A stretch of 64,000 nt of DNA. It comes from Mucilaginibacter sp. Its GTDB lineage: Bacteria > Bacteroidota > Bacteroidia > Sphingobacteriales > Sphingobacteriaceae. A program made the position numbers and the translations under genes. The notes below the pieces were generated by a model. It was not told the origin of the DNA, did no database searches, and saw only the letters and a program-made list of their open reading frames with translations. The stretch spans positions 572,000 through 635,999 of the forward strand of contig NZ_OZ241747.1 of the NCBI RefSeq assembly GCF_965201005.1, read 5' to 3'. Positions 8,345 through 34,070 of the stretch are shown piece by piece (position 1 is the first letter of the stretch; each line of letters starts with the position of its first letter).

Positions 8345-8361
8345 TAAACCCTTTCTTTATG

Positions 8362-8396
8362 AAAAAAAACCCTTCCATTTTGGAAGGGTTTTTTTG
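8362..8396 (+). terminator. rho-independent terminator after the response-regulator gene
   Basis: AAAAAAAACCCTTCCA-TTT-TGGAAGGGTTTTTTT is a perfect stem followed by a T-run. Confidence 0.85.
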
Positions 8397-8503
8397 TTAA
8401 AAATAATTAAGGTATAAATTATTTTACTGATAATAAGGGAGTTAAGAAACAGTTTTCGATCTGGTTCTGGTTTTGGACAAGGCTTTTCCAAAATCATCAA
8501 ACT

Positions 8504-8587
8504 ATGCTCACAATCTTGTTGTTCCTGGCACTGCTTATTAGCTGCTATTTTATTTTTAAAGCAATCGACTGGTTCGAAAAAATCTGA
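8504..8587 (+). CDS. 27-aa hydrophobic micro-ORF upstream of kdpF (possible leader or small membrane peptide)
   Basis: The ORF runs from ATG to TGA and encodes MLTILLFLALLISCYFIFKAIDWFEKI. It ends 4 nt before kdpF. No homology is recognised and it is below the ORF-track size cutoff. Confidence 0.25.
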   Translation: MLTILLFLALLISCYFIFKAIDWFEKI

Positions 8588-8591
8588 AATT

Positions 8592-8669
8592 ATGTTACTA
8601 CTATTCATCATCTCTATCGCAGTATTTATCTACATGATCTATGTACTGCTTAAACCTGAAAAATTTTAA
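8592..8669 (+). CDS. kdpF: K+-transporting ATPase subunit F
   Basis: 25-aa ORF MLLLFIISIAVFIYMIYVLLKPEKF. It has the single TM helix plus the (Y)xLLxPExF ending typical of KdpF and ends 10 nt before kdpA. Confidence 0.7.
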   Translation: MLLLFIISIAVFIYMIYVLLKPEKF

Positions 8670-8679
8670 CTGAAGTACA

Positions 8680-10398: not shown

Positions 10399-10428
10399 GC
10401 AGCCTTATCCGGCTTTATAAAAATCAAA

Positions 10429-12462
10429 ATGACAACAAAATCCAATAAATTATTTGAACCGGCTTTGGTACAAACTGCCTTAAAAGAGTCGTTTATTAAA
10501 CTAAACCCGCAGGTAATGCTGCGTAATCCGGTGATGTTTACGGTAGAGATCGGAACCGCGGTAATGCTGTTCGTAAGTATTTATAGCTTCGGCCACCGCG
10601 ATCAGGGTACTTTCGGTTACAACTTTGCTATTTTTATCATCCTTTTTTTGACTGTGTTATTTGCCAATTTTGCCGAAGCCATTGCCGAAGCACGCGGTAA
10701 AGCTCAGGCAGATAGTTTGCGTAAAACACGTGAAGAAACACCTGCAAATTTGGTTTCTGCGGATGGTGGCATCACTTCCATTTCATCAAACCAGCTAAAA
10801 AAAGGCGATGTTTTTGTATGTGAAAGTGGCGACACGATACCAACCGACGGCGAAATTATCGAAGGTTTGGCAACGATTGACGAATCGGCCATTACAGGCG
10901 AATCTGCGCCCGTGATCCGAGAATCCGGTGGCGATAAATCTTCCGTGACCGGCGGCACAAAAGTACTTTCAGACAAAATCAAAGTAATCGTGACCACCGA
11001 ACCAGGCGAAAGCTTTTTGGACAAAATGATTGCTTTGGTAGAAGGCGCGTCCAGGCAAAAAACGCCAAACGAAATTGCGCTGACCATTTTGCTGGCCAGT
11101 TTTACGCTGATTTTTATCATCGTTTGTGTAACCTTAAAACCCTTTGCAGATTATGCGCATACGCCAATAACTATCGCCGCTTTGATTTCGCTTTTTGTTT
11201 GTTTGATCCCAACCACAATTGGCGGTTTGTTATCTGCAATTGGTATCGCCGGGATGGACCGCGCATTGCGTGCCAACGTGATCACCAAATCGGGCAAAGC
11301 TGTGGAAACTGCTGGCGATATTGATGTTTTATTGTTGGACAAAACAGGCACTATCACCATCGGTAACCGCAAGGCCACCAACTTTTGGCCGGTAAAAACA
11401 GTATCGCCTGACGAGCTGATCCAGGCTGCCGTGCTTTCTTCGCTGGCAGATGAAACGCCTGAAGGGAAATCTATTATCGAGCTGGCGCAGCAAAGCGGTG
11501 TCCGTTTTTTGCAAACTGCGCCTCAAGGTGCCAATTTTATAAAATTTACTGCCGAAACCCGTTCGAGCGGTATTGATTTGTTAGACGGTTTGCGCATCCG
11601 TAAGGGGGCTTTTGATTCGATCCGAAACCTTTCTGTAAACGCCGGGAACGCTTTTCCGGCGGATGTTGCAGAACGTGTAAAAACGATTTCTTCCAACGGT
11701 GGCACGCCGCTCGTAGTGTCGCAAAACGAAGTGGTTTTAGGTACGATAGAATTGCAGGACATTATCAAAACCGGTATTTCAGAACGTTTTGAACGCCTGC
11801 GGAAAATGGGCATAAAAACAGTAATGGTTACGGGCGATAATCCGCTGACGGCCAAATTTATTGCCGAAAAAGCTGGCGTTGACGATTTTATCGCGGAAGC
11901 AAAACCCGAGGATAAAATGAATTACATCAAACACGAACAGCAAAACGGAAGATTGGTTGCGATGATGGGCGACGGCACTAACGATGCGCCCGCTTTGGCG
12001 CAGGCCGATGTTGGTGTGGCCATGAACAGCGGTACGCAGGCCGCAAAAGAAGCCGGAAATATGGTGGATTTGGACAACGACCCGACCAAACTGATCGAGA
12101 TTGTGGAAATTGGCAAGCAGCTGCTCATCACGCGCGGTACGCTCACTACTTTTTCCATCGCCAACGATGTGGCCAAATACTTTGCCATCGTTCCTGCTTT
12201 GTTTATTGCCTCAATCCCTGCCTTGCAAAGTATTAATATCATGCATTTGCACAGTCCGGAATCAGCCATTTTATCGGCTGTAATTTTCAACGCGATCATT
12301 ATCCCACTTTTGATCCCGCTGGCCTTAAAAGGTGTGGAGTACAAACCGATTGGTGCCAGTGCCCTGCTTCGCCGTAACTTGTTGATTTATGGTTTTGGCG
12401 GAGTGGTTGCCCCTTTTATCGGCATAAAATTAATAGACCTTTTGATTGGTACAATGGTGTAA
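10429..12462 (+). CDS. kdpB: potassium-transporting ATPase subunit B (P-type ATPase)
   Basis: Contains [19 protein letters not shown] and [16 protein letters not shown]. Confidence 0.95.
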
Positions 12463-12468
12463 AGCGCA

Positions 12469-12496
12469 ATGCTTCTTTTATCCCTATAAAATTATT
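12469..12496. repeat. solo ATGCTTCTTTTA-family arm between kdpB and kdpC
   Basis: ATGCTTCTTTTATCCCTATAAAATTATT starts 7 nt after the kdpB stop and ends 4 nt before the kdpC ATG. Confidence 0.8.
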
Positions 12497-12499
12497 ATA

Positions 12500-13066
12500 A
12501 TGAAAAAATATATTCTTCAATCCATCCGGTTAACCTTGGTGCTTACCGTTTTGCTTTGTGTGATCTATCCCGTGTTTATTGCTTACGTTGGCAAACTATC
12601 AAAAGGCCAGGGCAACGGCGAAACCATTACCGTAAACGGAAAAGTGGTTGGCTATGCCAATATCGGCCAAAAGTTTGACAAAGACGGCTATTTCTGGTCG
12701 CGCCCATCGGCTGTTGCTTATAATGCGGCCGGTTCTGGCGGTTCTAACAAAGGCCCTTCCAACCCGGATTATTTGAAAGATGTAGAAGGCCGTATCCAAA
12801 ACTTTTTGAAACACGATCCCGGTGTTAAGCGTGCGCAAATCCCTGCTGATCTGGTTACCGCTTCTGGCAGTGGTTTAGACCCTGATCTTTCTCCGGAAGC
12901 AGTGCAGGTTCAAACGGCACGTATCGCTAAAGCACGAAATTTATCTGTGCAGCAAGTAAGCGAATTGGTCAATCAGCACATCGAAAAACCTTTATTGGGT
13001 TTTTTCGGACCGGCAAAAGTGAATGTTTTAAAGTTAAACGTAGCTTTAGATGCGCTTAAAAAATAA
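12500..13066 (+). CDS. kdpC: potassium-transporting ATPase subunit C
   Basis: MKKYILQSIRLTLVLTVLLCVIYP... plus the VTASGSGLDPDLSPEA motif. The ORF-track start at 12446 would run through the repeat arm, so ATG 12500 is preferred. Confidence 0.9.
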   Translation: MKKYILQSIRLTLVLTVLLCVIYPVFIAYVGKLSKGQGNGETITVNGKVVGYANIGQKFDKDGYFWSRPSAVAYNAAGSGGSNKGPSNPDYLKDVEGRIQNFLKHDPGVKRAQIPADLVTASGSGLDPDLSPEAVQVQTARIAKARNLSVQQVSELVNQHIEKPLLGFFGPAKVNVLKLNVALDALKK

Positions 13067-13121
13067 AAATATAACGGCCACAAATGCTTTATTAAACACA
13101 TGTGGTTTTGATCTGCAAAAA

Positions 13122-14207
13122 ATGAAAAAAATATTGTTAGCTGTTTTTACCGGTCTTTTTTTGTCGGCCGCTGTAAAAGCTCAGGATTCAACACAATCTT
13201 CCGGCAAATTAACCATAAGTGGCTATGCCGAATTGTATTACGGGTACGATTTTAACCGGCCAAAAGATAATAACCGGCCAAATTTTGTTTACTCGCACAA
13301 CCGCCACAATGAAGTAAACCTAAACCTGGGTTTTATCAAAGCAAATTATGATAACGGCACGGTTAGGGCAAACCTGGCATTAATGGCCGGAACGTATGCC
13401 AATGCTAATTTAGCCGCAGAGCCCGGCGTTTTAAAAAATGTTTTTGAAGCAAATGCAGGTTACAAACTTTCTAAAACAAGCAACCTTTGGGTTGATGCCG
13501 GTATTTTTTCTTCGCACATTGGTTTTGAAAGCGCGATCTCTAAAGATTGCTGGGTTTTAACCCGTAACATCTCTTCAGAAAACACACCATATTATGAATC
13601 CGGAGCTAAATTAAGCTATACCACGGCCAATAATAAACTTACTTTAGTGGGTTTGTATTTGAATGGCTGGCAACGCATTTACCGTCAGGCTGGCAACAGT
13701 CAGCCTGCCGGTGGCTTGCAGGTTTTTTATAAACCAGATGATAAAATAACGCTGAATTATAGTAACTATTTAGGAACAGAAGGTGCCGATTCTATCCGCG
13801 TACGTCGTTTTTATAATAATTTTTATGCTATATTTCAGGTAAACAAAGCTTTTGGCTTAACTGCTGGTTTTGATTACGGCATCCAGCAGCAGGCTAAAGG
13901 CAGCAGCAGTTATAACCATGTAATTTCGCCGGTGGCCATTGCTCGTTATCAGTTTACCGATAAATGGGCAATGGCCGGGCGGGTAGAATATTATGAAGAC
14001 AAAACGGGTATTTTTATTGCAACCAATACACCTAACGGTTTTAAAACCACGGGCTATTCTTTAAACCTGGATTATGCACCGGCCACAAATGCCATTATCC
14101 GTTTAGAAGGAAAAGTTTATAACAGTAAAGATGCCATTTTTACAACGCCTGCCGGAACAGCAAACACAAGCCCTTTGCTTACCGCAAGTTTCGCGGTTTC
14201 ATTTTAA
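13122..14207 (+). CDS. kdp-locus outer-membrane porin (beta-barrel)
   Basis: Signal peptide MKKILLAVFTGLFLSAAVKA, an alternating beta-strand pattern and a C-terminal aromatic residue (..SFAVSF). It sits between kdpC and kdpD, as in other Bacteroidota kdp loci. Confidence 0.7.
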   Translation: MKKILLAVFTGLFLSAAVKAQDSTQSSGKLTISGYAELYYGYDFNRPKDNNRPNFVYSHNRHNEVNLNLGFIKANYDNGTVRANLALMAGTYANANLAAEPGVLKNVFEANAGYKLSKTSNLWVDAGIFSSHIGFESAISKDCWVLTRNISSENTPYYESGAKLSYTTANNKLTLVGLYLNGWQRIYRQAGNSQPAGGLQVFYKPDDKITLNYSNYLGTEGADSIRVRRFYNNFYAIFQVNKAFGLTAGFDYGIQQQAKGSSSYNHVISPVAIARYQFTDKWAMAGRVEYYEDKTGIFIATNTPNGFKTTGYSLNLDYAPATNAIIRLEGKVYNSKDAIFTTPAGTANTSPLLTASFAVSF

Positions 14208-14220
14208 GATAAATGTTATG

Positions 14221-14377
14221 GCCTGTTTAAATGTCGTCTGGTTTTTTGCAAATGCTTCTTTTATCGCCTAAAATTTGGTGTTTTTGTGTGAATTTTCAAT
14301 CAGCAACAAATATAAAAAACCAAATTTACAGGCATAAAAGAAGCATTGCAGTTTCTTCAACAGCAGTTTAAACAGGC
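14221..14377. repeat. full nested palindromic element of the ATGCTTCTTTTA family (157 bp)
   Basis: The outer arms are GCCTGTTTAAA (14221-14231) and TTTAAACAGGC (14367-14377), each 20 nt from the core. The core arms are ATGCTTCTTTTATCGCCTAAAATTTGGTG (from 14252) and CCAAATTTACAGGCATAAAAGAAGCAT (to 14346). The centre is variable. Confidence 0.85.
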
Positions 14378-14390
14378 TTTAAATATACCA

Positions 14391-14419
14391 ATGCTTCTTT
14401 TAGCACCTAAAAACAGTAT
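14391..14419. repeat. compact palindrome (A-type arm + B-type arm) abutting the kdpD-N start codon
   Basis: In ATGCTTCTTTTA-GCACC-TAAAAACAGTAT, the final AT of the element plus G14420 form the ATG start at 14418. Confidence 0.8.
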
Positions 14420-15533
14420 GGATACTTCGGTTAGGGATTTTATTGAACTGGTAAAAAAATCAAGGCGCGGCAAATTTAAAATTTACATCGGCATGAGTGC
14501 CGGTGTGGGCAAAACTTACCGTATGCTGCAGGAGGCGCACACGCTTTTGCGCAACGGCATTGATATCCAGATCGGTTATATCGAAACCCACAACCGCGCC
14601 GAAACACATGCCCTGCTGGCCGGTTTGCCCATGATTGTGAAACGCAAGGTTTTTTACAAAGGCAAAGAACTGGAGGAAATGGATTTGCAGGCCATCCTGA
14701 ACCGGCACCCGGAAGTGGTGATTGTGGACGAGCTGGCGCATACCAACATTGAAGGCAGCAAAAACAGCAAGCGCTGGCAGGATGTACTGGACATTTTGGA
14801 AGCAGGCATCAGTGTGATTTCCGCAGTGAACATTCAGCATCTGGAAAGCATCAACGAAGAAGTGGAAACCATTACCGGGATTGCCATTACCGAACGGATC
14901 CCGGACAAAGTGCTGGAACTGACAGACGAAATTGTTAACATTGACTTAACGGCCGATGAACTGATTGACCGGCTGAAAGAAGGCAAAATTTATGACAAAA
15001 GTAAAGTAAACCTGGCACTGCAAAATTTTTTTCAGGCTGATAAGATTTTGCAATTGCGGGAAATGGCTTTAAAAGAAGTGGCGCACCATTTAGAGCGGAA
15101 AATTTCGATCGAAGTCCCGAAACAAATCAAGCTGCGTTCTGAGAAATTTCTGGCCTGCATTTCTTCCAACTCAGAAACGGCAAAAATCGTGATCCGGAAA
15201 ACCGCGCGGCTGGCCTCATATTATCGCTCGCAGTGGATTGTGCTGTACGTGCAAAGCAGTAACGAAAGTTTAGACAAGATCAAACTTGATAAGCAAAGAT
15301 ATCTCATCAACAACTTAAAATTGGCCACAGAACTGGGCGCAGAACTGCTGAAAATCAAAAGCGATGAAATTATGCAAACCATTATGCAGGTGGCCGAAGA
15401 ACGGGAAATTACAACCATTTGCATTGGCAAACCACATTTAAAATTGTTTCAGGTAATATTAAGGACGGGCGCATTTAACGTGCTGCTTAATAAGCTGGCA
15501 GCTACAGAAACTGATTTAGTTATACTATCATGA
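14418..15533 (+). CDS. kdpD: KdpD N-terminal sensor domain + Usp-like domain protein (split KdpD, no kinase core)
   Basis: Contains GKFKIYIGMSAGVGKTYRML (the KdpD P-loop), VIVDELAHTN and AVNIQHLES, followed by a Usp-like C-terminal half. The start is taken at ATG 14418 rather than the track start at 14346. Confidence 0.85.
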   Translation: MDTSVRDFIELVKKSRRGKFKIYIGMSAGVGKTYRMLQEAHTLLRNGIDIQIGYIETHNRAETHALLAGLPMIVKRKVFYKGKELEEMDLQAILNRHPEVVIVDELAHTNIEGSKNSKRWQDVLDILEAGISVISAVNIQHLESINEEVETITGIAITERIPDKVLELTDEIVNIDLTADELIDRLKEGKIYDKSKVNLALQNFFQADKILQLREMALKEVAHHLERKISIEVPKQIKLRSEKFLACISSNSETAKIVIRKTARLASYYRSQWIVLYVQSSNESLDKIKLDKQRYLINNLKLATELGAELLKIKSDEIMQTIMQVAEEREITTICIGKPHLKLFQVILRTGAFNVLLNKLAATETDLVILS

Positions 15534-17287
15534 AAGTAAAAAATAAACTCCGCTTAGGGTTCGGCTTTTTGTTTATCGTTGTGCTCTTTTTTGGCACCGT
15601 TTCCATCTTCTACATCAACGAAATCTCAAACAGTGCAAAAGTTATTTTAAAAGACAACTACGAAACTTTAAACTTTGCACGGGAAATGCGTATGGTTTTA
15701 GATGAAAATACTTTGCCGCTCAATACCGCTTCGCAGGCATCTTTTGACCGGCAGCTGGCAAAGGAGGAAAATAACATTACCGAAACCGGCGAGCAGGCCG
15801 CAGTAAAAAGTTTGCGTACTGCTTTTACCGTTTTACAAAATACGGCTTTGCCCATGGAACAGCAGCTGCAGGCCGAAAAAAATGCCCGAAGGAATTTGCG
15901 CAAAATTGAAATCCTGAACATGCAGGCAATTGTCCGCAAAAACGATCAGGCACAGGCTTCTGTTAAAAAAGCCACGTTGTTTTTAGGTTTGGCCGGCACC
16001 TTTACGTTTTTGGTGCTGTTCAGTTTCAGCGTTAACTTTCCCGGATTTATCTCCAACCCTTTAAATACTTTGCTGGAAGGCATCAGGGAAATTGGCCGGA
16101 AAAACTACAGCCAGCGTGTTCATTTTGAAAAGCAGGACGAGTTTGCGGAAGTAGGCCGTGCTTTTAATGATATGGCAGCCCGGCTGAACGAATGGGAAAA
16201 CAGCAATTTGTCCAAAATTATGTCGGAAAAGCTGCGGATAGAAACCATTATAGAGCAAATGCACGATGCAATTATCGGGATTAACGAAAAACAGGAAGTG
16301 CTGTTTATTAACTCCGCAGCAAAAATTTTATTAAACCTGAATGAGCAAAGTTTGGCAGGAAAATCTGTTGATGCCATTACAAAAAGTAACGATCTGTTCA
16401 GTTCGATCATCAAAGAGACTAAAGCAGGAAAGCCGTTTAAAATTGTGGAGAATGGGAAAGATGCTTATTTTCAGCTGGAAGTGAGGGAGATTTCGGTCCC
16501 GAATATCGAACCTAACAGGAGTGAAACGATATCTATCTCACATCATTCGGCCGGAAAAGTATATGTTTTGCGCAACATCACAGAGTTTAAAGAAAGGGAC
16601 GAGGCAAAAACCAATTTTATCGCCACTATTTCGCACGAACTGAAAACGCCTATCTCTTCCATGAAATTAAGCCTGAAGCTTTTGGCAGACAGCAGGATTG
16701 GCGGATTGAACCCGGAGCAGGAACAATTGGTGCTTCACCTTAACGAAGATGCAGAACGCCTGCTCAAAATCACGTACGAACTTTTAGACCTTTCGCAGGT
16801 GGAAACTGGTAATATCCAATTAAATTTTGTACCAACGCGGCCAGAACAGATCATAGAATATGCAGTCAAAGCGATCAGTTTTGAAGCTGAACAAAAAAAG
16901 GTAACGATTGAACAATCTGTTGATTTAAAGCTGCCCAATGTGCAGGTTGATGTTGAAAAAACAGCCTGGGTGATGATCAATTTTCTTTCCAATGCTTTAC
17001 GCTACAGCCCGTCGGGGTCTAAAATCATCGTTCAGGTTTCACAGAAAATGCAAATGGTCGAATTTGCTGTAAAAGACTTTGGAAAAGGGATTGACACGCA
17101 GTATTTAGAACGTTTGTTTGACCGCTATTTCCAGGTGCCAACGGACGGGCAAAATAAATCTGGCTCGGGGCTGGGGCTGGCAATTTCTAAAGAGTTTATT
17201 GCCGCACAGGATGGCCGGATTGGTGTAGAAAGTGAAATTGGCGCAGGCAGCCGGTTTTATTTTCAGCTGCCGGTAATGGTTGCTTAA
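15530..17287 (+). CDS. HAMP/PAS sensor histidine kinase (kinase half of the kdp two-component sensor)
   Basis: Has two TM segments, a HAMP region, a PAS-like region, the H-box FIATISHELKTP and the G-box GSGLGLAISKEF. It overlaps the preceding gene by 4 nt. Confidence 0.85.
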   Translation: MKVKNKLRLGFGFLFIVVLFFGTVSIFYINEISNSAKVILKDNYETLNFAREMRMVLDENTLPLNTASQASFDRQLAKEENNITETGEQAAVKSLRTAFTVLQNTALPMEQQLQAEKNARRNLRKIEILNMQAIVRKNDQAQASVKKATLFLGLAGTFTFLVLFSFSVNFPGFISNPLNTLLEGIREIGRKNYSQRVHFEKQDEFAEVGRAFNDMAARLNEWENSNLSKIMSEKLRIETIIEQMHDAIIGINEKQEVLFINSAAKILLNLNEQSLAGKSVDAITKSNDLFSSIIKETKAGKPFKIVENGKDAYFQLEVREISVPNIEPNRSETISISHHSAGKVYVLRNITEFKERDEAKTNFIATISHELKTPISSMKLSLKLLADSRIGGLNPEQEQLVLHLNEDAERLLKITYELLDLSQVETGNIQLNFVPTRPEQIIEYAVKAISFEAEQKKVTIEQSVDLKLPNVQVDVEKTAWVMINFLSNALRYSPSGSKIIVQVSQKMQMVEFAVKDFGKGIDTQYLERLFDRYFQVPTDGQNKSGSGLGLAISKEFIAAQDGRIGVESEIGAGSRFYFQLPVMVA

Positions 17288-17323
17288 ATGGAAAGATTTT
17301 GCGTGTCGGGTTTATATGGTGCG

Positions 17324-17347
17324 ATGCTTCTTTTATCACCTAAAAAT
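17324..17347. repeat. solo ATGCTTCTTTTA-family arm at the 3' end of sdaA
   Basis: ATGCTTCTTTTATCACCTAAAAAT ends at the sdaA stop codon (complement of 17347-17349). Confidence 0.8.
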
Positions 17348-18774
17348 CAGCAATCAGGAATTGAAATCGGGATTTGTATCGCCAGGCCGCCATCCGCAGT
17401 TTCCTTGTATTTCGAGTTCATGTCCTGCGCGGTTTCCCACATCGTTTTTACCACGGCATCCAAGCTCACGCGTGCATTGTCCGGGTTGGATTGCAAGGCT
17501 AATTGCGATGCTGTGATCGCTTTGATCGCGCCCATCGTATTGCGCTCGATACAAGGCACTTGTACCAATCCGCCAATTGGGTCGCAGGTCATGCCCAGAT
17601 GATGTTCCATGGCAATTTCCGCAGCCATTAAAACCTGGCGTTGCGATCCGCCCAAAACTTCGGTTAAACCTGCCGCGGCCATGGCGGAGGAAACACCGAT
17701 TTCTGCCTGGCAGCCGCCCATCGCTGCCGAAATGGTAGAACCTTTTTTAAAAATACTGCCGATCTCCGAAGCCGTCAGCAAAAACCTGATAATCTGATCG
17801 ATACTGTTTTTATCACAGAAAATCAGGGCATAATGCAACACAGCCGGGATTACGCCTGCCGCGCCGTTGGTTGGTGCCGTAACCACCCGGCCAAACGAAG
17901 CGTTCTCTTCATTTACGGCCAAAGCAAAGCAGCTCACCCAATCCAAAATATACTGAAAACTGCTGCTTTTTTGTTTGATGGCCGCAACCCAGCTTTCGTA
18001 ATCCCGGTATTCTGCATCGCCCAAAAGCCTTTTGTTGCTGCGTGCCGCCCGCCGTGCCACGTTCAATCCGCCGGGCAAATAGCCGGAAGTGTGGCAGCCA
18101 CGGTACAAACATGTTTTCATCACTTCAAAAATCTGTAAAATACCGGTTTGGGTGGCTTCTTCGGATCGCCAGGCCAGTTCGTTTTCCATCACCACGTCGG
18201 AAATTTTCAGGCCGGTTTTCAAACACCAGTGCAGCAAATCATTGGCGGTATCAACCGGGAAGGGCAAATCAACTTCTGTTTTTGCTGCGGATTGTCCGTT
18301 TTCTTTCACTACAAAACCACCGCCGATAGAATAATACGTTTCTGAAATTGCTTTTCCATCTGCCAGAAAAGCCTGAAACGTAACCGCATTCGGGTGAAAA
18401 GGCAAACTGTTGTTCATCAAAAAAAGCAAATCATGGCCGATACTGAAACCAATGCTGTTTTTACCACCTAAATTTAGTTGTTGGTTGATGGCAATGCTTT
18501 CGATTTTTGGCTCGATCTGATCCACCGGAAACGTAACGGGATCATCTCCGCTTAAACCTAATAAAACGGCAATGTCCGTTCCGTGGCCTTTCCCGGTTTT
18601 GGCCAGCGAACCATACAGCAGGATTTTGATCTGTATAACTGATTCCATCAAATTGGCATCCTCCAGCAAAACCACAAACTGCTGCGCCGCCCGCCACGGC
18701 CCCAAAGTATGCGAACTGGACGGCCCGATACCGATTTTAAACATATCAAAAACAGAAATCTGCTCTTTTTGCAT
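17347..18774 (-). CDS. sdaA: L-serine ammonia-lyase (single-chain, iron-sulfur dependent)
   Basis: Starts [20 protein letters not shown] and contains [16 protein letters not shown] and C.ERN. It carries two B-type repeat copies (17801 and 18452). Confidence 0.9.
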
Positions 18775-19001
18775 GATTAAAAATAGTGTTTTTAATTTGA
18801 TGTTGGTTTATACGGAAAATATTGTTGAACAAACCACGATTGTGGTTGTAAAAACGGTGCGGGAAATTGGCCTAAAAGTTACCGAAAAGCAATATATGTA
18901 AATTGTTAACGGTAAACCTTCAAATATTGTATGTGTAAATTTAATTAAGGTTTTTGAATCGAAAGCCAATTGCTGTTTGGGTTTTTTGCGGATTTATTTC
19001 T

Positions 19002-19092
19002 ATGCTTCTTTTATCGCCTAAAAAACTGTGAAGACAGGTTTGCTGCTTTAGATAAATACAAACCACCAAATTTATAGTGCTAAAAGAAGCAT
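19002..19092. repeat. ATGCTTCTTTTA-family palindromic element (L...R, 91 bp)
   Basis: The arms are ATGCTTCTTTTATCGCCTAAAAAACTG... and ...AAACCACCAAATTTATAGTGCTAAAAGAAGCAT. Degenerate outer arms sit at about 18970 and about 19108. Confidence 0.85.
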
Positions 19093-19379
19093 CAGGGTTT
19101 TAAAACAAAGCTAAACCAGCTATATAATGAGTAAAGTTTTTCCTATATATTTTAATTGGGGTTTACAATAAAGAAAACAACAGGATTGGACCTTCTATAA
19201 CCAACCATTCAAAAATCTTAGTTTTCAACTGGTTCTTTTTTTCGCATTTAATGTTCATATCAAGCATGGAACAAAAGTAGTGCCTGCATTTTTCTAAATT
19301 GTCATATCTATATAAGTTTAAACATTTAATCGTTTGATTAACATAAAAATAATAATTTTTTAACAATTACATTCAGCAG

Positions 19380-19395
19380 ATGCTTCTTTTATCAT
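19380..19395. repeat. solo ATGCTTCTTTTA-family arm next to the groEL terminator
   Basis: The sequence is ATGCTTCTTTTATCAT. Confidence 0.75.
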
Positions 19396-19414
19396 ACATT
19401 TTTTGGCAGAAACA

Positions 19415-19447
19415 AAAAAGCTTGTCTGGTTTCCCAAACAAGCTTTC
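19415..19447 (-). terminator. rho-independent terminator of groES-groEL
   Basis: On the minus strand the sequence is AAAGCTTGT-loop-ACAAGCTTTTTTGTTT. This is a 9-bp stem plus T-run, about 40 nt after the groEL stop. Confidence 0.7.
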
Positions 19448-19483
19448 AGTATATATTAAAATTTATAATGGTTGCACAGCTGA

Positions 19484-21124
19484 TTACATCATGCCGCCCA
19501 TACCGCCGCCGCCCATTGGAGGCATACCACCACCACCTTTTTCATCTTCAGGATCATCGGCCAAAACACATTCTGTTGTTAACAACATTGCAGCGATAGA
19601 AGCAGCATTTTCCAAAGCCACACGGCCTACTTTAGTTGGATCGATCACACCGGCACCGATCAAATTTTCGTATTTATCGGTACGTGCATTGTAACCAAAA
19701 TCAGCAGTGCCTTCTTTTACTTTTTGCACCACGATAGAACCTTCAATACCTGCATTTTCGCAGATTTGACGTAATGGCTCTTCAATAGCACGACGAATGA
19801 TCTGGATACCTGTGTTTTCATCTTCGTTAACGCCTTTAACCTCGGTCAAAGATTCTACCGCACGGATGAAAGCTACACCGCCACCGGCAACAATACCTTC
19901 TTCAACCGCAGCACGTGTTGCATGTAAAGCATCATCAACACGGTCTTTTTTCTCTTTCATTTCCACTTCTGTGGCAGCACCAACATACAATACAGCAACA
20001 CCGCCGGACAGTTTGGCTAAACGCTCCTGTAGTTTTTCTTTATCGTAATCAGAAGTAGTAGTTTCAATCTGAGATTTGATCTGGTTAACACGGGCTTTAA
20101 TCTCTTCGGTTTGGCCGGCACCGTTGATTACGGTTGTGTTGTCTTTATCAACAACAATTTTCTCGGCAGTACCTAAATAAGAAAGATCAGCATTTTCCAA
20201 TTTGTAACCTCTTTCTTCAGAAATTACTGTTCCGCCAGTCAAAATTGCAATATCTTCTAACATCGCTTTACGACGATCGCCAAAACCGGGAGCTTTAACA
20301 GCAACCACTTTCAGCGAACCACGGATTTTATTTACAACCAAAGTAGCCAAAGCTTCCCCGTCCAAATCTTCCGCAATAATTAACAATGGTTTACCGGTTT
20401 GTACTTGTTTTTCCAAAACCGGCAACAATTCCTTCATAGAAGAAATCTTTTTGTCGTAAATTAAAATGTAAGGGTTTTCTAATTCCGCTTCCATTTTATC
20501 GGCATTAGTTACAAAGTATGGAGATAAATAACCTCTGTCAAACTGCATACCTTCAACCGTTCTTACTTCAGTTTCGGTGCCTTTTGCTTCTTCAACTGTG
20601 ATAACGCCATCTTTTCCAACTTTTTCCATTGCTTCTGCAATTAGCGAACCGATGATTTCGTCGTTGTTTGCAGAGATAGAAGCAACTTGTTTGATTTTGT
20701 TATTGTCTTCGCCAACTGTTTGAGATTGCTCTTTCAGGTTAGCCACAACAGCCGCAACCGCTTTGTCAATACCACGTTTCAAATCCATCGGGTTTGCACC
20801 GGCGGCAACGTTTTTAATACCAGCGGTTACAATTGCCTGCGCCAAAACGGTAGCCGTAGTTGTTCCGTCACCTGCAATATCAGCAGTTTTGGAGGCCACT
20901 TCTTTCACCATTTGCGCACCCATGTTTTCCAAAGAATCTTTTAATTCGATTTCTTTGGCAACAGTAACACCATCTTTAGTGATAATCGGGGAACCAAATT
21001 TTTTGTCGATAATTACGTTCCTGCCTTTTGGGCCTAAAGTAACTTTAACCGCATTGGCCAAAATATCAACACCGCGTTTTAAAGCGTCGCGCGCTTCTAC
21101 ATTATATTTAACTTGTTTTGCCAT
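19484..21124 (-). CDS. groL: chaperonin GroEL
   Basis: Starts [20 protein letters not shown] and contains [12 protein letters not shown]. The C-terminal tail is [17 protein letters not shown]. Confidence 0.97.
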
Positions 21125-21186
21125 TGTATTGGTTTTTAAGAATGAATAGAATAGTTTAGGCTGAAAATATCAAACCCGGATATGAT

Positions 21187-21462
21187 TTACAGAACTGCGT
21201 AAACGTCTGATTCACGCATGATTAAGTACTCTTTGCCTTCATAAGTAATTTCAGTACCGGCATATTTGCCATATAAAACCTGATCGCCAACTTTAACGGT
21301 CAGCGGCTCGTCAACTTTGCCTTCGCCAACGGCAACGATTGTTCCGCGTTGTGGTTTTTCTTTTGCAGTGTCAGGGATAAAAAGTCCGGATGCCGTTTTT
21401 TCTTCAGCAGCGGCAGCTTCTACTACTACTCTGTCTCCAATCGGTTTGATGTTTAATGACAT
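21187..21462 (-). CDS. groS: co-chaperonin GroES
   Basis: 91 aa with [10 protein letters not shown]...[26 protein letters not shown]. Confidence 0.97.
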
Positions 21463-21575
21463 TTTTGTATTTAGTTTTTGAATGAAAAATAAAATTACTA
21501 CTGCTTATCGTCAAACAGCAACTGTGCCAAAGCCCTGTTTCTGTACATATTGACTTATTGGCTTGCGAAACTTGT

Positions 21576-21583
21576 CAAAATTA
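21576..21583 (-). promoter_or_regulatory. candidate Bacteroidota -7 box (TAATTTTG) for groES-groEL
   Basis: This is the only TAnnTTTG match on the minus strand in the 236-bp region upstream of groES. It implies a 5' UTR of about 105 nt. No clear -33 TTTG was found. Confidence 0.3.
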
Positions 21584-21642
21584 CTTTCCCTTAAATATTT
21601 TAATTGATTTTAGTTGATGGAAATGTGCCATCCTGACAGCCC

Positions 21643-21678
21643 AACAAAAAAGGCTTTCGTATCATCCGAAAGCCTTTT
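21643..21678 (-). terminator. rho-independent terminator of secG
   Basis: 11-bp stem AAAGGCTTTCG / CGAAAGCCTTT with a 7-nt loop. On the minus strand it is followed by TTTTTTG. Confidence 0.8.
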
Positions 21679-21682
21679 ATTA

Positions 21683-21700
21683 ATGCTGTTTTTACCACCT
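21683..21700. repeat. solo B-type arm overlapping the secG stop codon
   Basis: ATGCTGTTTTTACCACCT; the secG TAG is the complement of 21699-21701. Confidence 0.8.
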
Positions 21701-22043
21701 ATTTTTTAGGCAGCGGCTGTTGTACCGGAGGCAAATTCAGCGGTGCGCTCACCGGAGCGGTTGGTTTTGAAGCTTTGTCAATCTGTTCCTGGTTTTGCAC
21801 ACGGTTTGCAGATGATGGACCGTTTTTAGAAACCACATTTACAGCCAGCGAAAGCACCATCAGCGCAATAGCCAAAAACCAGGTCCCTTTTTCCAGAAAA
21901 TCACCGGTTTTTTGTACGCCCATCATTTGAGACGAACTCGAAAAATTAGAATTCAGGCCGCCGCCTTTCGGGTTCTGGATCAGCACGATCAAACCAAGCA
22001 GCACGCAGATAATCACAATCAAAACAACAAGCACTAAATACAT
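21699..22043 (-). CDS. secG: preprotein translocase subunit SecG
   Basis: 114 aa with two TM helices and LIVLIQNPKGGGL. Confidence 0.85.
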   Translation of the reverse strand: MYLVLVVLIVIICVLLGLIVLIQNPKGGGLNSNFSSSSQMMGVQKTGDFLEKGTWFLAIALMVLSLAVNVVSKNGPSSANRVQNQEQIDKASKPTAPVSAPLNLPPVQQPLPKK

Positions 22044-22049
22044 TTTATA

Positions 22050-23825
22050 TCAGTTTATTTTTTTCTCTATTTCTGTTAGTTGGGCTGCAAAGTAAACGCT
22101 TTTTTCCGGAAATTTCAACAGCAGCTTTTTATAAGTATCTAAGGCTTTGTGGTAAAGCATTTGGTCCAAGTAAACTTTTGCCAGCGTTTCCGTCACCAAA
22201 ATATCTGCATCTTCCGAACTCTTTTTAGCCTTGTTTTCTGTGTCCAACTTATCCATACTTGGCGGGTGGATGTGCGGTTCTTCAATAATAAAACGTTCAA
22301 TCAGCTGCTTCTCCTTCTTTTTAACTGGCAATTCTTCTATCGGCGGCAACACGTTTTCGGGCACTTTCAGCGGTGCTTTGGTATGAAAAATACTTTCTAT
22401 ATATTGCTGGTGCAGCTCCGGGCCAACGCTTAAATCAGTGTTGTTTTGTACATTTTTAGTGTAAGGCTGATAGTTCCCATCATGTTCTTTGCGCGTTCTG
22501 TCCAGCCACCACATAAACGTGTACGGCATTTTATCATCATGATATTTGGAAACCGTATCTGCTTCATTTTCAGTTTGATAATCCGTTTTTATAGGTTCAG
22601 CCAAAGCTTTTTCTAATGGATCATCACCTTTTTCTATCAATTGTTTTTCAGTTTCAGGCGTTTGGTTTTGCCCGAATTTCTGGTTAAAAGAAAAATAATC
22701 GATCGAAGCAATGTTGCTCAGCATTGCTTTTTCCGCCTCATCGCGGGCATTTAAAGGTGTTTCTTCCGAAGTAATTTCGGGTGTAACTGCAACTTCCGGT
22801 GCTAATGATTCAGGTTCGGATCCGGGAACAATTTGGGGCGATGCTTCTTTTACCACCTCAAATTTGATGTCCTCAATCGCCATGATTTCCTCAAAAACCT
22901 CTTCGTCAATTTCCTGGCCGGCGGGTTTTTGATTAAAGTTTTCTTCGAATGCTAAAATCGTTGGTTCAGGGAAAACAAGTTTTTCATCGTCCTCATTTAC
23001 AAATGTTTGGCTTATGTCTTCTGCCCGGAAATCATTTTCGGCAGCCATTGCTTCCTCCAAATTTTCACCTGTAAAAGAAGCATCAACGTTTTCTGCGGAA
23101 GGGATATCTTCTGTAAAAACCGCTTCCTCGTCCTCAATTTCCGCAGGTTTTGGTTCGATAAAAGCCGCGTCGGTAGTTTCCTGCGGATCAGTTTCTTCCG
23201 ATTTTTCCTGACTATCGGTTCCGGTCAAATTTCCCTCAATAAAAACAGCATCGTTTTCTGCGGAAGGAGCAGCCCCGGCCACATCTGAATCCGCAGTAAC
23301 CACTTCCAGTTCCAAATCAATAAACGCGGCATTGTTGATTTCGTCAGCAGGTATTTCATCCGAAAAGTCCGCTTCCGTTTCAGGTTTTGGGTTGATAAAA
23401 ACAGTATTGGTTTCTTCTTTCGCAGCAACTTCCACCGGATAATTTGCTGCAAAAGCTGCCGGTGCGTCCACCAAATTTTCCTCTGTAAAAACAGTATCAG
23501 TTGTTGTTTTATGATCGGTTTTACTTCCATCAAAACCAACAAAACGATCTGGTTTTGGCGCAACCAGCAATTCCGGCCGGTGGATCAGCCGGAACAAAAC
23601 TTCCCGGTTTGCCGCATAAACTGCCGCCGAACGAAGTGCTTTTTCTGCAATTTCGGCATCTGGCTTTTGCACTGCTTTGGCCAGCAACATCCGGAAAATA
23701 CCGCAGGCCGGATAATTTTGCACCAACGCTTCCAACTGCTGCCGGTGCATTGCGTTTGCCGCCGCCGGATTGGCCAATAGTTGCTGCAAAAATTCGGGGT
23801 TTAACCCGTTTTGTATCTGATCCAC
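22050..23825 (-). CDS. acidic repeat protein with a C-terminal TPR-like helix pair
   Basis: 591 aa. The central Asp/Glu-rich region carries the repeated peptide D-[AT]-[AVS]-F-[TI]-x-[EG]-N-L, encoded by the genome-wide repeat motif. The C-terminus is ...ETLAKVYLDQMLYHKALDTYKKLLLKFPEKSVYFAAQL. Confidence 0.7.
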   Translation of the reverse strand: MDQIQNGLNPEFLQQLLANPAAANAMHRQQLEALVQNYPACGIFRMLLAKAVQKPDAEIAEKALRSAAVYAANREVLFRLIHRPELLVAPKPDRFVGFDGSKTDHKTTTDTVFTEENLVDAPAAFAANYPVEVAAKEETNTVFINPKPETEADFSDEIPADEINNAAFIDLELEVVTADSDVAGAAPSAENDAVFIEGNLTGTDSQEKSEETDPQETTDAAFIEPKPAEIEDEEAVFTEDIPSAENVDASFTGENLEEAMAAENDFRAEDISQTFVNEDDEKLVFPEPTILAFEENFNQKPAGQEIDEEVFEEIMAIEDIKFEVVKEASPQIVPGSEPESLAPEVAVTPEITSEETPLNARDEAEKAMLSNIASIDYFSFNQKFGQNQTPETEKQLIEKGDDPLEKALAEPIKTDYQTENEADTVSKYHDDKMPYTFMWWLDRTRKEHDGNYQPYTKNVQNNTDLSVGPELHQQYIESIFHTKAPLKVPENVLPPIEELPVKKKEKQLIERFIIEEPHIHPPSMDKLDTENKAKKSSEDADILVTETLAKVYLDQMLYHKALDTYKKLLLKFPEKSVYFAAQLTEIEKKIN

Positions 23826-23845
23826 GGTTTGAAACTACGATTTGC

Positions 23846-24373
23846 TTACCAATTGGCAAAAGCCTTGTTAAAAATATCTTCAGTCAGTTGCGTATTGATG
23901 GCTGCAATCAGCCCTTGTTCGCGCGTGCCAATATCGCCCTGATAATCCTGATAACGCGAAAACGATTGCTCAAAATTTTGTTTTGGGTCTAAATTATTGG
24001 TGTATTTCACGTTCACCGTAATGGTTAAACGGTTGGTGTTGGATATTGGTGCGATGCTGCTGTTGGCCGCCGGCAAAACCGTTGGCGCAATGGTGTAGCC
24101 CGTAATGCGGCCTTCCAAAGTGCAATCTGCATCGCCCCGAACCGTGCTTAAACGGGTTTGCGTGCGGATACGGTCCTGCAAAGCGGTGGTAAAAGTCTGG
24201 CTTAAATTGTTGATCACCAGCGGTGCCACGTTTTCAAAAATCGGAATGTTGATGGTTTTTAACGCGCCAACCGAACCGCCGTTTAATTTGTAGGAGCAAG
24301 CCTGAAAGCAAAAAAATATCGGCAGTAAAAAAAACAAGCCCGATTTTTTGCCGATAAAAGAAGTATTGGCCAT
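23846..24373 (-). CDS. LptE-like lipoprotein
   Basis: Has a lipoprotein signal (LLPIFFCFQAC) at about 175 aa. The assignment rests on its position between the sigma-54 activator and the TPR/secG genes. The N-terminus MANTSFIGKK is encoded by a repeat-family arm. Confidence 0.45.
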   Translation of the reverse strand: MANTSFIGKKSGLFFLLPIFFCFQACSYKLNGGSVGALKTINIPIFENVAPLVINNLSQTFTTALQDRIRTQTRLSTVRGDADCTLEGRITGYTIAPTVLPAANSSIAPISNTNRLTITVNVKYTNNLDPKQNFEQSFSRYQDYQGDIGTREQGLIAAINTQLTEDIFNKAFANW

Positions 24374-24383
24374 TAATGTATGT

Positions 24384-25640
24384 TTATAAATTCAGTTCTT
24401 TAATTTTTCGGTACAAAGTGCGCTCGGAAATGCCCAGTTCCTGAGCGGCAAATTTGCGTTTGCCTTTGTGTTTTTTCAACGCTTTTTTTATCAGGTCTGA
24501 TTCTTTTTCCAGCAATGAAAGTGATTCTTCCACTTCTTCAGCTTCGTGTGCAATGCTAAAATCTTTGTTGTTTTGCGTTGGTTGCTGGATAGTTAATTTG
24601 GGTTCCTGCGGATGATTGTTCTGGTGATGAAACTGATGGTCGCCTTCAATCTCAATATCGCGGTAAAGCTGGTTCAAAACCTGCGGATTGCCGGTATAAT
24701 TTGCCGTAACGCCGCCATTTTCAATAATATCGACCACTAATTTTTTAAGGTCCGTCACGTCGCGCTTCATGTCAAAAAGCACTTTGTACAAAATATCACG
24801 TTCCGAAAAATCGTCTTTTTTCTGTTGATTGATGCGCATCGGCAAATTGCTGCCGCTGTTTTCCTGCGGGATGTATTGCAGCAAACTTTGCGCAGAAATG
24901 GTATGATCGCGCTCTAAAACGGCTAATTGCTCGGCAATATTTTTCAGCTGACGAACATTTCCCGGCCAGCTGTAATTCACCAGCATTTGCTGCGCTTCTT
25001 CATTCATTTGTATGGGCGGAGAACGATATTTCGCCGTAAAATCTGCCGTAAATTTTCTAAAAAGCAGATAAATATCTTCTTTCCGGTCGCGCAACGGCGG
25101 GATGCGCAACGGAACGGTATTCAGCCGATAATACAAATCTTCCCGGAAACGGCCTGATTTTACCGCATCATAAACATCCACGTTGGTGGCCGCAATTACA
25201 CGTACATTGGTTTTTTCTACTTTGGATGAACCAACTTTAATATATTGCCCGGATTCCAAAACCCGCAGCAAACGCGCCTGAGTCCCCAAAGGCATTTCGG
25301 CAATTTCATCCAGAAAAATCGTTCCGCCGTTTACCGTTTCAAAATAACCTTTACGCTCGCCAATGGCACCCGTATAAGCACCTTTTTCATGTCCAAAAAG
25401 TTCCGAATCAATGGTTCCTTCGGGGATGGCACCGCAATTTACCGCGATAAACGGACCATGTTTCCTGGGGCTCATCTGGTGGATGATGTGCGAAAAAACC
25501 TCTTTACCGCTGCCGCTTTCGCCTGTAATCAGCACCGAAATATCTGTTGGTGCCACCTGGTTGGCAATATCTATCGCCCGGTTAAGCAAAGGCGAATTAC
25601 CAATAATCCCGAAGCGCTGTTTAATTTCCTGAATCTCCAT
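24384..25640 (-). CDS. sigma-54 interaction-domain transcriptional activator (no receiver domain)
   Basis: Walker A GESGSGKE, a GAYTGA loop, and a C-terminal Fis-type HTH (AAQELGISERTLYRKI). Confidence 0.85.
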   Translation of the reverse strand: MEIQEIKQRFGIIGNSPLLNRAIDIANQVAPTDISVLITGESGSGKEVFSHIIHQMSPRKHGPFIAVNCGAIPEGTIDSELFGHEKGAYTGAIGERKGYFETVNGGTIFLDEIAEMPLGTQARLLRVLESGQYIKVGSSKVEKTNVRVIAATNVDVYDAVKSGRFREDLYYRLNTVPLRIPPLRDRKEDIYLLFRKFTADFTAKYRSPPIQMNEEAQQMLVNYSWPGNVRQLKNIAEQLAVLERDHTISAQSLLQYIPQENSGSNLPMRINQQKKDDFSERDILYKVLFDMKRDVTDLKKLVVDIIENGGVTANYTGNPQVLNQLYRDIEIEGDHQFHHQNNHPQEPKLTIQQPTQNNKDFSIAHEAEEVEESLSLLEKESDLIKKALKKHKGKRKFAAQELGISERTLYRKIKELNL

Positions 25641-25647
25641 ACTGTTT

Positions 25648-27066
25648 TTAGCCTACAATTTTACCAATTAAGGTTGCGGTTGTACATTTTTCGATCAAAA
25701 CATTGGCATAATCGCCCGGCTGGTAGCGTTTATCTGCCGGAAAAACCACCGTTGCATTCAAATCATTCCGTCCGCTATAATCTAAAGCTGATTTTTTAGA
25801 ACGTTTCTCGATCAAAACCTGCTGCACCTGGCCGATTTGTTCTAACAATCTGAAATGCGAATGCTGTTGTTGTTTAGCCACAATTTCGCGCAACCGGCGG
25901 CTTTTGGTTTCCTCCGGAATATCGTCCGCATAACGCTTTGCCGCCAGCGTTCCCGGCCGTTCCGAATACATAAACATGTAGGCGAAATCGTACTGCACAT
26001 AATCCATCATGCTCAGCGTTTCCTGGTGTTCTTCTTCCGTTTCCGAACAAAAACCGGTAATCACATCGGTAGAAATGGCACAACCGGGAAGAATGCGACG
26101 AATGGCATCAATCCGGTTCATGTACCAGGCACGGTCGTAAGTACGGTTCATCAGTTCCAAAATCCGGCTGTTGCCCGATTGTACCGGCAAATGGATGTAT
26201 TTGCAGATGTTGTCGTACTTTTTCATCGTGTAAAGCACTTCATCCGTAATATCTTTTGGGTGAGATGTTGAAAAACGTACGCGCAACTTTGGGTTGATTA
26301 ACGCCACAAATTCCAGCAACCCGGCGAAATTTAGGATGATGCCGTCTTCATTCGTCCATTTGTACGAATCCACATTTTGCCCAAGCAGCGTAACTTCTTT
26401 ATAACCGGCATTAAATAAATCCGCACATTCTTTGACGATAGAAAAAGCATCACGGCTACGTTCGCGGCCGCGTGTAAACGGAACCACGCAAAATGAACAC
26501 ATGTTGTCGCAGCCGCGCATAATCGACACAAAAGCGTTGATGCCGTTGCTGTTTAAACGCACCGGACTAATATCAGCGTAAGTTTCTTCGCGGGAAAGCA
26601 GCACGTTTACCGCTTTTTGTCCGCTGTCCACCTGTTCAATCAAATTTGGCAGGTCGCGGTAAGCATCCGGGCCAACCACTACGTCAACCAATTTTTCTTC
26701 TTCCAAAAACTTGGCTTTTAAACGTTCGGCCATGCAGCCCAAAACGCCAACCACCATTCCCGGGTTCCGCTGTTTGGAAACTTTAAATTCTTTCAAACGA
26801 TTACGTACACGTTGTTCCGCATTTTCGCGGATTGAGCAAGTGTTGATAAAAACCACGTCCGCTTCCTTAAAATCCGAAGTGGTTTCAAAACCCTGATCCG
26901 CCAGAATGGAAGCAACAATCTCACTGTCCGAAAAATTCATCGCGCAGCCATAACTTTCAATATACAGTTTGCGGCCATTGTTTTTCAATATCGTTTTATC
27001 CAGCACCAACGCTTCGCCTTGCCGGCTTTCATCGTGTTTGCTGGTTGGAAAATCCAAATTCATCAT
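25648..27066 (-). CDS. miaB: tRNA (N6-isopentenyl adenosine(37)-C2)-methylthiotransferase MiaB
   Basis: Contains [10 protein letters not shown], the radical-SAM motif [13 protein letters not shown] and a TRAM-like C-terminus. Confidence 0.9.
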
Positions 27067-27150
27067 AAAAAATTGAACTGCAAAAGTAAGAAAATGTTAT
27101 TTAATTGCGTGACAGATTGGCAGTATTAAACACAAATCGGCTTAAATAAT

Positions 27151-27175
27151 GATTTTATACCGATAAAAGAAGCAT
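27151..27175. repeat. solo ATGCTTCTTTTA-family arm (R orientation)
   Basis: GATTTTATACCGATAAAAGAAGCAT matches the extended arms at 515-540 and 39309-39335. Confidence 0.8.
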
Positions 27176-27268
27176 TGCCTGTTTCCAAACGTATCATTTT
27201 AAATACTATTCTATATCTTGTACAAATTTGCTGCTGCCCAACGTATAAAAGCAGGAAGGATTTGGGAA

Positions 27269-34067: not shown

Positions 34068-34070
34068 TAA

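Follow-up and report, generated by a model that had tools for sequence, protein, structure and literature searches.

A 64,000-nucleotide stretch of Mucilaginibacter sp. DNA (contig NZ_OZ241747.1; hereafter the window, which means the whole stretch) is densely occupied by a 12-bp motif, ATRCTKYTTTTA, which is hyper-abundant in one lineage of Sphingobacteriaceae and is found both within genes and in the spacers between them. A sequence-only reading of the window had drawn attention to two nearly identical 29-nt stretches, one in the L-serine dehydratase gene sdaA and the other in an epimerase gene of the short-chain dehydrogenase/reductase (SDR) type. These two 29-mers are shown to be independent, old copies of the motif. 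The explanation of the motif that we rank first, and to which we give an even chance, is a DNA uptake signal, in which case the motif would be the first of its kind in Bacteroidota. It would resemble the uptake signal sequences (USS) known from Pasteurellaceae and the DNA uptake sequences (DUS) known from Neisseriaceae. This explanation is ranked first because the density of roughly one copy per kb with both strands represented, the lineage restriction, the apparent origin by substitution with its bias on the proteome, and the maintenance at the DNA level, silent sites included, match USS and DUS. The phased A/T tract, the excess of copies in spacers with inverted pairs, and the absence from an accessory insert are further reasons for this ranking.

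Form, abundance and lineage of the motif

The window contains the kdp operon, groESL, secG, secA, and purD, and is ordinary chromosomal DNA. By k-mer counting, its most frequent 12-mers are ATGCTTCTTTTA (42 copies), ATACTGTTTTTA (15), and ATGCTGTTTTTA (11). The core motif is expected 0.36 times in a sequence of this size, and no match to Rfam was found anywhere in the window. The counts are as follows.

1..64000, unstranded: whole window, with 74 copies of the strict core ATRCTKYTTTTA or 86 copies of the looser core RTRCTKYTTTTA

The loose copies are distributed over both strands (47 plus, 39 minus), and each 4-kb bin holds 2-9 of them. Within genes, 45 copies were counted (52%), with 22 in sense and 23 in antisense orientation. 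The remaining 41 (48%) fall in the approximately 11% of the window that is non-coding, where the density is about 7 times higher.

The core is asymmetric and has two favoured forms, variant A (...CTTCTTTTA) and variant B (...CTGTTTTTA). Its two central bases are two-peaked: TC (A) and GT (B) dominate in the metagenome contigs (650 kb), in six related loci, and in the window alike. The intermediates one step away from either form, TT and GC (CTTTTTTTA and CTGCTTTTA), are rare, as the 650 kb contain 21 and 13 of them, respectively, versus 457 copies with TC and 103 with GT. Variant use in the window also depends on location: spacers hold 34 A and 7 B copies, whereas genes hold 23 B and 17 A copies. 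The flanks are common to both variants, with Y at position +13 and C at position +14. Positions +20 to +24 are approximately 98% A/T (AAAWT) and are followed by a weak GG. The start of this tract is 12 bp past the T-run in the core, which corresponds to about one turn of the helix, and the arrangement recalls the phased A/T tracts in USS of Haemophilus.

Orthologue searches identified a genome designated L001 as the closest one, with 93% identity in SdaA, followed by Mucilaginibacter at approximately 78%. For the epimerase, a clade of 45 orthologues (P0001-P0045) shares 71-97% identity, and a drop to 69% or less sets off Mucilaginibacter proper. Every sampled member of the clade carries the motif, at 0.57-0.95 copies per kb in L001 and five further loci (L081-L085). 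The range over the window, these loci, and approximately 650 kb of metagenome contigs is 0.57-1.2 per kb, and the motif was also found in more than 120 metagenome stretches. For the isolate Mucilaginibacter sp. HMF7410 (protein P0023), we infer the motif only from the peptide GKNSI. The outgroup consisted of 79 loci of Mucilaginibacter, Pedobacter, Sphingobacterium, and Chitinophagaceae, together with M. paludis, 1.44 Mb in total. It contains six copies of variants A and B, which makes them about 270 times rarer than in the clade, and no other dispersed motif of comparable density was found in the outgroup loci.

Two of the metagenome-assembled genome records, L001 (JBPBPL010000007.1) and L085 (JBPBPF010000042.1, GCA_050921655.1), are titled 'Janthinobacterium lividum', a betaproteobacterium. 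This label must be wrong, because their proteins are 82-93% identical to those of the window (and approximately 75% to those of Mucilaginibacter), which places both genomes, as judged from these proteins, in the Sphingobacteriaceae.

A 5.2-kb SusC/SusD insert in L001 has zero copies versus approximately 4.7 expected. The insert (L001 12348-17236, relative to the window) comprises a SusD/SusC-like pair of 547 and 1074 aa with a GC content of approximately 0.35, and is probably a recently acquired polysaccharide-utilisation module. Viral contigs were searched as well. Three long motif patterns had no match in them, and a 15-mer gave nearly exclusively single, chance-level matches among the matches listed, with no motif-dense phage seen.

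The use of the two variants within genes differs between sub-lineages. In the JAABU* metagenome contigs, the peptide KRSI (variant A) is found 23 times and KNSI (variant B) 8 times, whereas KNSI leads KRSI by 8:1 in the window and by 16:4 in L001 and L081-L085. This difference may represent an incipient shift of 'dialect'.

Origin and maintenance of the copies within genes

When 25 window genes were compared with their clade orthologues, third-position identity at amino-acid-conserved codons was 92.4% (133/144) in the core versus 62.6% (8575/13697) outside, and amino-acid identity was 80.7% for motif codons versus 82.6% for the background. A second test used 18 sites, the most divergent orthologue of each gene, and random 12-mers from the same genes as the null. 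The identity of the core was 0.917 versus 0.763 +/- 0.033 for the null, a value that none of 5000 permutations reached. The 17-nt extension of the coding copies scored 0.761 versus a background of 0.779. Because of this difference between core and extension, it is the core, rather than the extended arm in its entirety, that is held in genes; the tract likewise retains its A/T composition. The sequence-only reading had favoured a motif-creating drive over transposition, and silent-site conservation in the core far above background bears this preference out.

The motif also alters the proteome. Per 100,000 residues, the peptide KNSI occurs 39 times in the window, 48 times in the clade loci, and 1.6 times in the outgroups, and ASFT, KEAS, VKEA, TVFT, and MLLL are about 10-25 times enriched in the window. 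Motif peptides overall are enriched 10-30 times. The proposed comparison with motif-free relatives was carried out, and KNSI, ASFT, KEAS, and MLLL were found to be 10-30 times commoner than in these, as the motif-driven reading of the peptides had anticipated.

Motif sites stay in place between the window and L001, which share 82-86% nucleotide identity. At four orthologous sites, however, the whole dinucleotide is swapped between TC and GT, that is, between A and B; these include sdaA 18452, the spacer site 19380, and a site in the gene at 56046. Such exchanges are seen at 18452, 19380, and 56069 relative to orthologous positions of L001 and L084. Single-step differences at the two central positions are no commoner than double changes. 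The two-peaked core and the direct switches between A and B remain unexplained under every model considered here.

The genes and copies that were examined for the origin of the motif are the following.

17347..18774, minus strand: L-serine dehydratase gene (sdaA), so named because of its Pfam matches SDH_alpha and SDH_beta; two motif copies, at 18452 and 17801
18452..18480, plus strand: motif copy in sdaA, with a variant B core at 18452-18463 followed by a 17-nt extension
17801..17812, plus strand: second sdaA copy, ATACTGTTTTTA, encoding D-K-N-S-I where motif-free genera have DGYTD or DGFSD
44555..45517, minus strand: NAD-dependent epimerase/dehydratase (SDR) gene, from Pfam families; three motif copies, at 45438, 45325, and 44698
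45438..45466, plus strand: motif copy in the SDR epimerase, with a variant B core at 45438-45449 followed by the extension; encodes Q-L-I-L-G-G-K-N-S-I
45325..45336, plus strand: second epimerase copy, variant A, encoding L-K-E-A-L

A codon alignment of the sdaA 18452 site with 19 orthologues contains no gap, and other genera have L-x-L-x-G-K-x-E-I at this position. Because of the missing gap and this motif-like peptide, the motif in sdaA was created by substitutions, at a variable place whose sequence was similar to the motif-encoded peptide beforehand. In sdaA of L001, AAA AGA AGC (variant A, K-R-S) stands where the window has AAA AAC AGC (variant B, K-N-S).

The epimerase site has G/D-K-N-S-I in 45 of 45 clade orthologues, and Mucilaginibacter proper is shorter by one residue there, for example with G-E-N-(gap)-L. 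The sequence-only reading had described the length there as normal for an SDR. Strictly, this does not hold, as the core in the clade contains an additional codon (GKNSI versus GEN-L). The codons GGT AAA AAC AGY ATC are kept in L081, L082, L083, and L084, and L085 has GAT as the first of them. Within the core, the sole variable base is at the position that the motif leaves free, and silent sites of the flanking codons vary freely. A replacement of GCC or TCC (Ala/Ser) by GGT (Gly) in the window lineage shifted the flank towards the CCACC of the motif family. At the second epimerase site (45325), the clade orthologues are a single step off the motif, four of five with TAAACGAAGCAT and the fifth with TAAAAGAAGCCT.

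Compared with motif-free genera, 11 of 15 comparable coding sites are gap-free, and the replacements lead towards motif-encoded peptides. From outgroup to motif, they include DGYTD to DKNSI in sdaA, LSNGI to HKNSI and FRHHI to FKNSI in purD, and INEVK to VKEAS in a lipB-like gene. The proposal that native codons had been overwritten and not displaced by transposition agrees with the indel-free sdaA site and with these 11 sites. Judging from the alignments, the coding copies thus arose by base substitution without indels, except for the extra epimerase codon. Among the drives that had been suggested, namely uptake bias, gene conversion, and repair, the sequence data do not single out one and cannot decide between them.

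A 591-aa acidic, low-complexity protein without a Pfam match is encoded on the minus strand at 22050-23825 and has five motif copies in approximately 650 nt. The copies fall on a recurring peptide, D-[AT]-[AVS]-F-[TI] (TDTVFTE, TNTVFIN, NDAVFIE, and VDASFTG), and DAAFIE and EAVFTE are also found, without the full motif.

Uptake signal, intracellular site, or mobile element

Uptake signals are a textbook case of a molecular drive that reshapes bacterial genomes and proteomes. If the motif is such a signal, competent cells would take up DNA with a sequence bias and integrate it by homologous recombination. More frequent uptake would favour alleles with a better motif, which would displace poorer ones, and the motif would spread whatever its coding cost. 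Intergenic inverted pairs and palindromic elements with two copies would ride on the same bias and may double as hairpins or terminators. The sequences themselves show that the motif builds up in resident chromosomal DNA by ordinary substitutions, mostly where the protein tolerates them and in frames whose peptides are acceptable, and that a core, once formed, is held at the DNA level, including silent codon positions.

One close counterpart is the USS of Pasteurellaceae, for example that of Haemophilus influenzae with its core AAGTGCGGT and A/T tracts. In both systems, a single lineage carries approximately one copy per kb, with both strands represented, and both combine a strong short core with weaker A/T tracts in helical phase. 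Copies within genes occupy tolerant positions, distort the proteome, and are conserved in position between related species, and intergenic inverted pairs form hairpins, which have been described for USS and DUS (bioRxiv 10.1101/2025.10.24.684340). Unlike USS, the present motif is found in Bacteroidota, is an unrelated and very A/T-rich sequence, has a 12-bp core with two discrete forms, shows a stronger non-coding bias, and is associated with fixed-length palindromic elements.

The DUS of Neisseriaceae, which is read by the minor pilin ComP, is likewise a 10-12-mer with approximately one copy per kb and lineage-specific forms. It forms inverted repeats near gene ends and is scarce in acquired DNA, to which the copy-free SusC/SusD insert corresponds here. 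However, each Neisseriaceae species has one dominant dialect, whereas here two forms coexist in a genome and are swapped at orthologous sites, and no receptor of the ComP type is known for the motif.

Several points weigh against an uptake signal. A literature search found no report of competence in Sphingobacteriaceae. With 48% of the copies in 11% of the DNA, the non-coding bias is stronger than that of USS. Many of the pairs in spacers share a set size of approximately 93 nt, and some lie in a repeat of approximately 165 nt with its own terminal inverted repeats; therefore a mobile-element process also operates. The two-peaked core and the four direct switches between A and B are not what simple uptake bias would obviously predict and could point to templated conversion. 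As for the uptake machinery, none of the 37 window proteins scanned with Pfam matched a competence family, although no search was aimed at competence genes. ComEC and DprA are too widespread to discriminate.

A more specific form of the uptake reading is a third, independently evolved uptake-signal system, the first outside Proteobacteria, in a soil and rock clade of Sphingobacteriaceae, with a two-form core, a phased A/T tract, and presumably a receptor other than ComP. To this we give slightly less than an even chance. A 2025 survey still treats uptake signals as confined to Pasteurellaceae and Neisseriaceae (bioRxiv 10.1101/2025.10.24.684340). In the Bacteroidota, natural competence with a preference for self DNA has been reported in Riemerella, where the signal has not yet been defined (PMC7965970). 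The phenomenon appears to be unreported, since the motif was not found in this sense in the literature searched; the 12-mer is present in six papers, and by title and abstract none of them deals with repeats in bacterial genomes.

An uptake signal in this clade would test the generality of the drive model beyond two families, and would lead towards a new receptor and route of uptake in Bacteroidota, where self-preferring competence has been reported but is unexplained. Placing the motif on donor DNA could aid the transformation of soil bacteria that are hard to engineer. The two-form core and its direct switches bear on how uptake specificities drift into new dialects. In genome annotation of the clade, the motif accounts for odd peptides that recur (KNSI, DASFT, VKEAS) and for many of the hairpins between genes.

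A different possibility, which we regard as unlikely, is that the motif is the site of a sequence-specific process within the cell, for example the target of a DNA-binding or DNA-modifying protein that serves chromosome organisation, self-marking, or the control of repair or recombination. It would then be comparable to HIP1 (highly iterated palindrome 1) or Chi, and its abundance would be kept by selection in the cell or biased repair and not by uptake. The silent-site conservation of the core fits any function at the DNA level, and HIP1 (GCGATCGC) of cyanobacteria is a precedent, being hyper-abundant in genes and spacers and conserved beyond coding need. HIP1 motifs are 15-300 times over-represented and maintained by selection, with a mechanism that is unsettled and a function that was long unresolved (PMC5861425); recently, a link to transformation efficiency has been described (bioRxiv 10.1101/2024.09.10.611283). 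A binding protein that acts as a dimer would fit the tight palindromic double copies, whose spacers measure 5-6 nt. In spacers, the extended arms include TTTGGTGG, a sequence similar to Chi of E. coli.

Against this, there is no strand skew of the type seen in Chi or KOPS (FtsK-orienting polar sequences), as the strand ratio is 47:39 and inverted pairs are frequent. HIP1 is palindromic, has 8 bp, and is linked to dedicated methyltransferases, whereas the present motif is asymmetric, longer, and accompanied by an A/T tract. Selection on each of thousands of sites, at a cost in amino acids, would be hard to sustain without a drive. No nucleoid protein or segregation site is known to correspond to an exact 12-mer at one copy per kb inside genes. 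If uptake is not involved, the data require an unknown intracellular process that writes and holds an asymmetric 12-mer genome-wide, including silent and replacement sites of housekeeping genes.

The third explanation concerns mobile DNA and is best considered together with the intergenic copies. Many of these are inverted pairs with an inner spacing that peaks sharply at 69-70 nt, which gives elements of approximately 93 nt. Their stems are A/T-rich and some lie between divergent genes. The following elements were delimited.

14218..14380, unstranded: composite intergenic palindromic element, with outer inverted repeats GCCTGTTTAAA ... TTTAAACAGGC and inner arms at 14252-14263 and 14335-14346; folding z = -8.4
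19002..19092, unstranded: intergenic inverted pair of 91 nt, between groEL and sdaA
44426..44534, unstranded: intergenic inverted pair (44426-44499) with one outer repeat (44520-44533), between convergent genes and beside the epimerase; z = -5.0
28065..28094, unstranded: tight palindromic double copy in a gene, ATGCTGTTTTTA-TGCCGG-TAAAAACAGCAT; z = -6.2

Other tight pairs within genes, with spacers of 5-6 nt, are located at 6296-6325, 14391-14419, and 60295-60324. A larger unit measures approximately 165 nt, has AGAGCCTGTTTAAA ... TTTAAACAGGCTCT at its borders, and contains two motif arms in inverted orientation. In the window, it is complete only at 14218-14380 and partial at 40987-41101 and 44426-44534. 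It was also found in L092, L094, L111, L120, L122, L123, L130, L132, L141, L145, L149, L151, and L153, and the JAABU* contigs have one subfamily of the unit with common interior sequence and flanks. This repeat looks similar to a miniature inverted-repeat transposable element (MITE). A search for an empty site or a target duplication of the element gave no clean case, and the spacers beside the epimerase are not comparable between genomes. A mobile-element-like process is active in spacers and accounts for few of the 86 copies.

It could be argued from these elements that the coding copies, too, came from mobile DNA, either as the arm of a MITE or of a REPIN (a doublet of repetitive extragenic palindromic, or REP, sequences), with the solo arms either left behind by insertions or generated through ectopic gene conversion by the many intergenic arms. 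The preferred length of the intergenic pairs, the subfamilies with a common interior, and the unit with its own terminal inverted repeats speak for such an origin, and the direct double changes between A and B at orthologous sites could be conversions. Like REPINs and MITEs, the motif forms intergenic inverted doublets of approximately 93 nt, long hairpins, and subfamilies. We nevertheless consider a mobile origin of the coding copies improbable. Half of the copies are solo arms in genes with neither inserted DNA nor a hairpin, and no associated transposase was seen. In RNA folding, the inverted doublets have z-scores from -4.5 to -8.4, while single arms, as in two solo coding copies, have z of about 0. 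REP and REPIN sequences are essentially extragenic, yet 45 of the 86 copies lie inside genes. The gap-free state of 11 of the 15 coding sites comparable with outgroups, the preference of coding copies for B and of intergenic ones for A, and the conservation in genes of the 12-nt core only, with no conversion tracts of arm length, also stand against it.

Some intergenic copies end 16-20 nt before an ATG AAA AAA start (12469-12502 and 49535-49565), and some may double as promoter or leader sequences. Several arms contain TAAATTTG, which is similar to the -7 promoter element TAnnTTTG of Bacteroidota. A promoter element as the identity of the motif was set aside, as copies are found on both strands inside genes and their silent sites are conserved.

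The 29-nt pair and minor observations

The two 29-nt stretches that had been noticed before, ATGCTGTTTTTACCACCTAAATTTAGTTG at 18452-18480 and ATGCTGTTTTTACCACCTAAAATTAGTTG at 45438-45466, differ by a single mismatch. The near-identity of 28/29 is real, as 100 dinucleotide-preserving shuffles gave zero matches even when up to three mismatches were allowed. Both 29-mers lie in minus-strand genes and are translated in the same frame, and the epimerase peptide MILVTGATGFLGSEVCRQLILGGKNSIHC directly follows GxxGxxG, each as described in the sequence-only reading. An assembly artefact, named there as a possible objection, is not the cause, since independent assemblies (L001, L081-L085) have the motif at these very positions.

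The weight that had been put on this identity is not borne out, as each copy is old in its own gene and conserved in orthologues. The motif copies of the window form 3,655 pairs, of which four agree at 28/29 positions, and the other three are intergenic; because it is one of these four, the sdaA/epimerase pair is the tail of a large motif family and not a unique duplication. Nor is the 29-nt 'extended arm' a copied unit. A clade set of 848 motif copies in approximately 825 kb was scanned, and the extension was found within one mismatch only in sdaA (window and L001) and in the window epimerase, with the epimerase orthologues next best. An exact GCTKYTTTTACCACCTAAANTTAGTTG scan of the metagenome contigs gave no match. 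A recurrent 29-mer subfamily or a master copy was ruled out by these two scans.

The bases beyond the consensus (AGTTG, the complement of CAACT) encode Q-L, which is ancestral, as KQL/RQL in the epimerase and KKL/HKL/QQL in SdaA. The additional likeness of the pair has two sources, the common reading frame of the motif (L-x-L-G-G-K-N-S-I) and the ancestral Q-L...L.GK peptides beneath it.

The weakest explanation, a direct exchange of 29 nt between sdaA and the epimerase or a recent copying of both from one 29-nt template, has the common frame and the top rank of the pair in its favour but is very improbable, because the approximately five bases beyond the consensus amount to about one coincidence expected among some 1,000 coding pairs; moreover, all 45 clade orthologues, including those at just 71% identity, have the epimerase copy with a conserved DNA core, the sdaA copy is common to the window and L001, no other locus of the 848 has the extension, and the epimerase extension TAAAATTAGTTGCCGG is older than the window lineage, with only the change from GCC/TCC to GGT being new.

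In addition, one region of the window stands out by its composition and divergence. The segment 36470-44361 encodes family-2 glycosyltransferases and an ABC transporter, its coding motif copies are all imperfect, and its GC content is lower, at 0.38-0.39. It contains internal paralogous repeats, with 36790-37258 matching 37821-38289 at 75-78% and 39807-40106 matching 41141-41440 at 88%. The orthologues in L084 and L085 are just 56-84% identical, and the segment is therefore a fast-evolving surface-polysaccharide locus.

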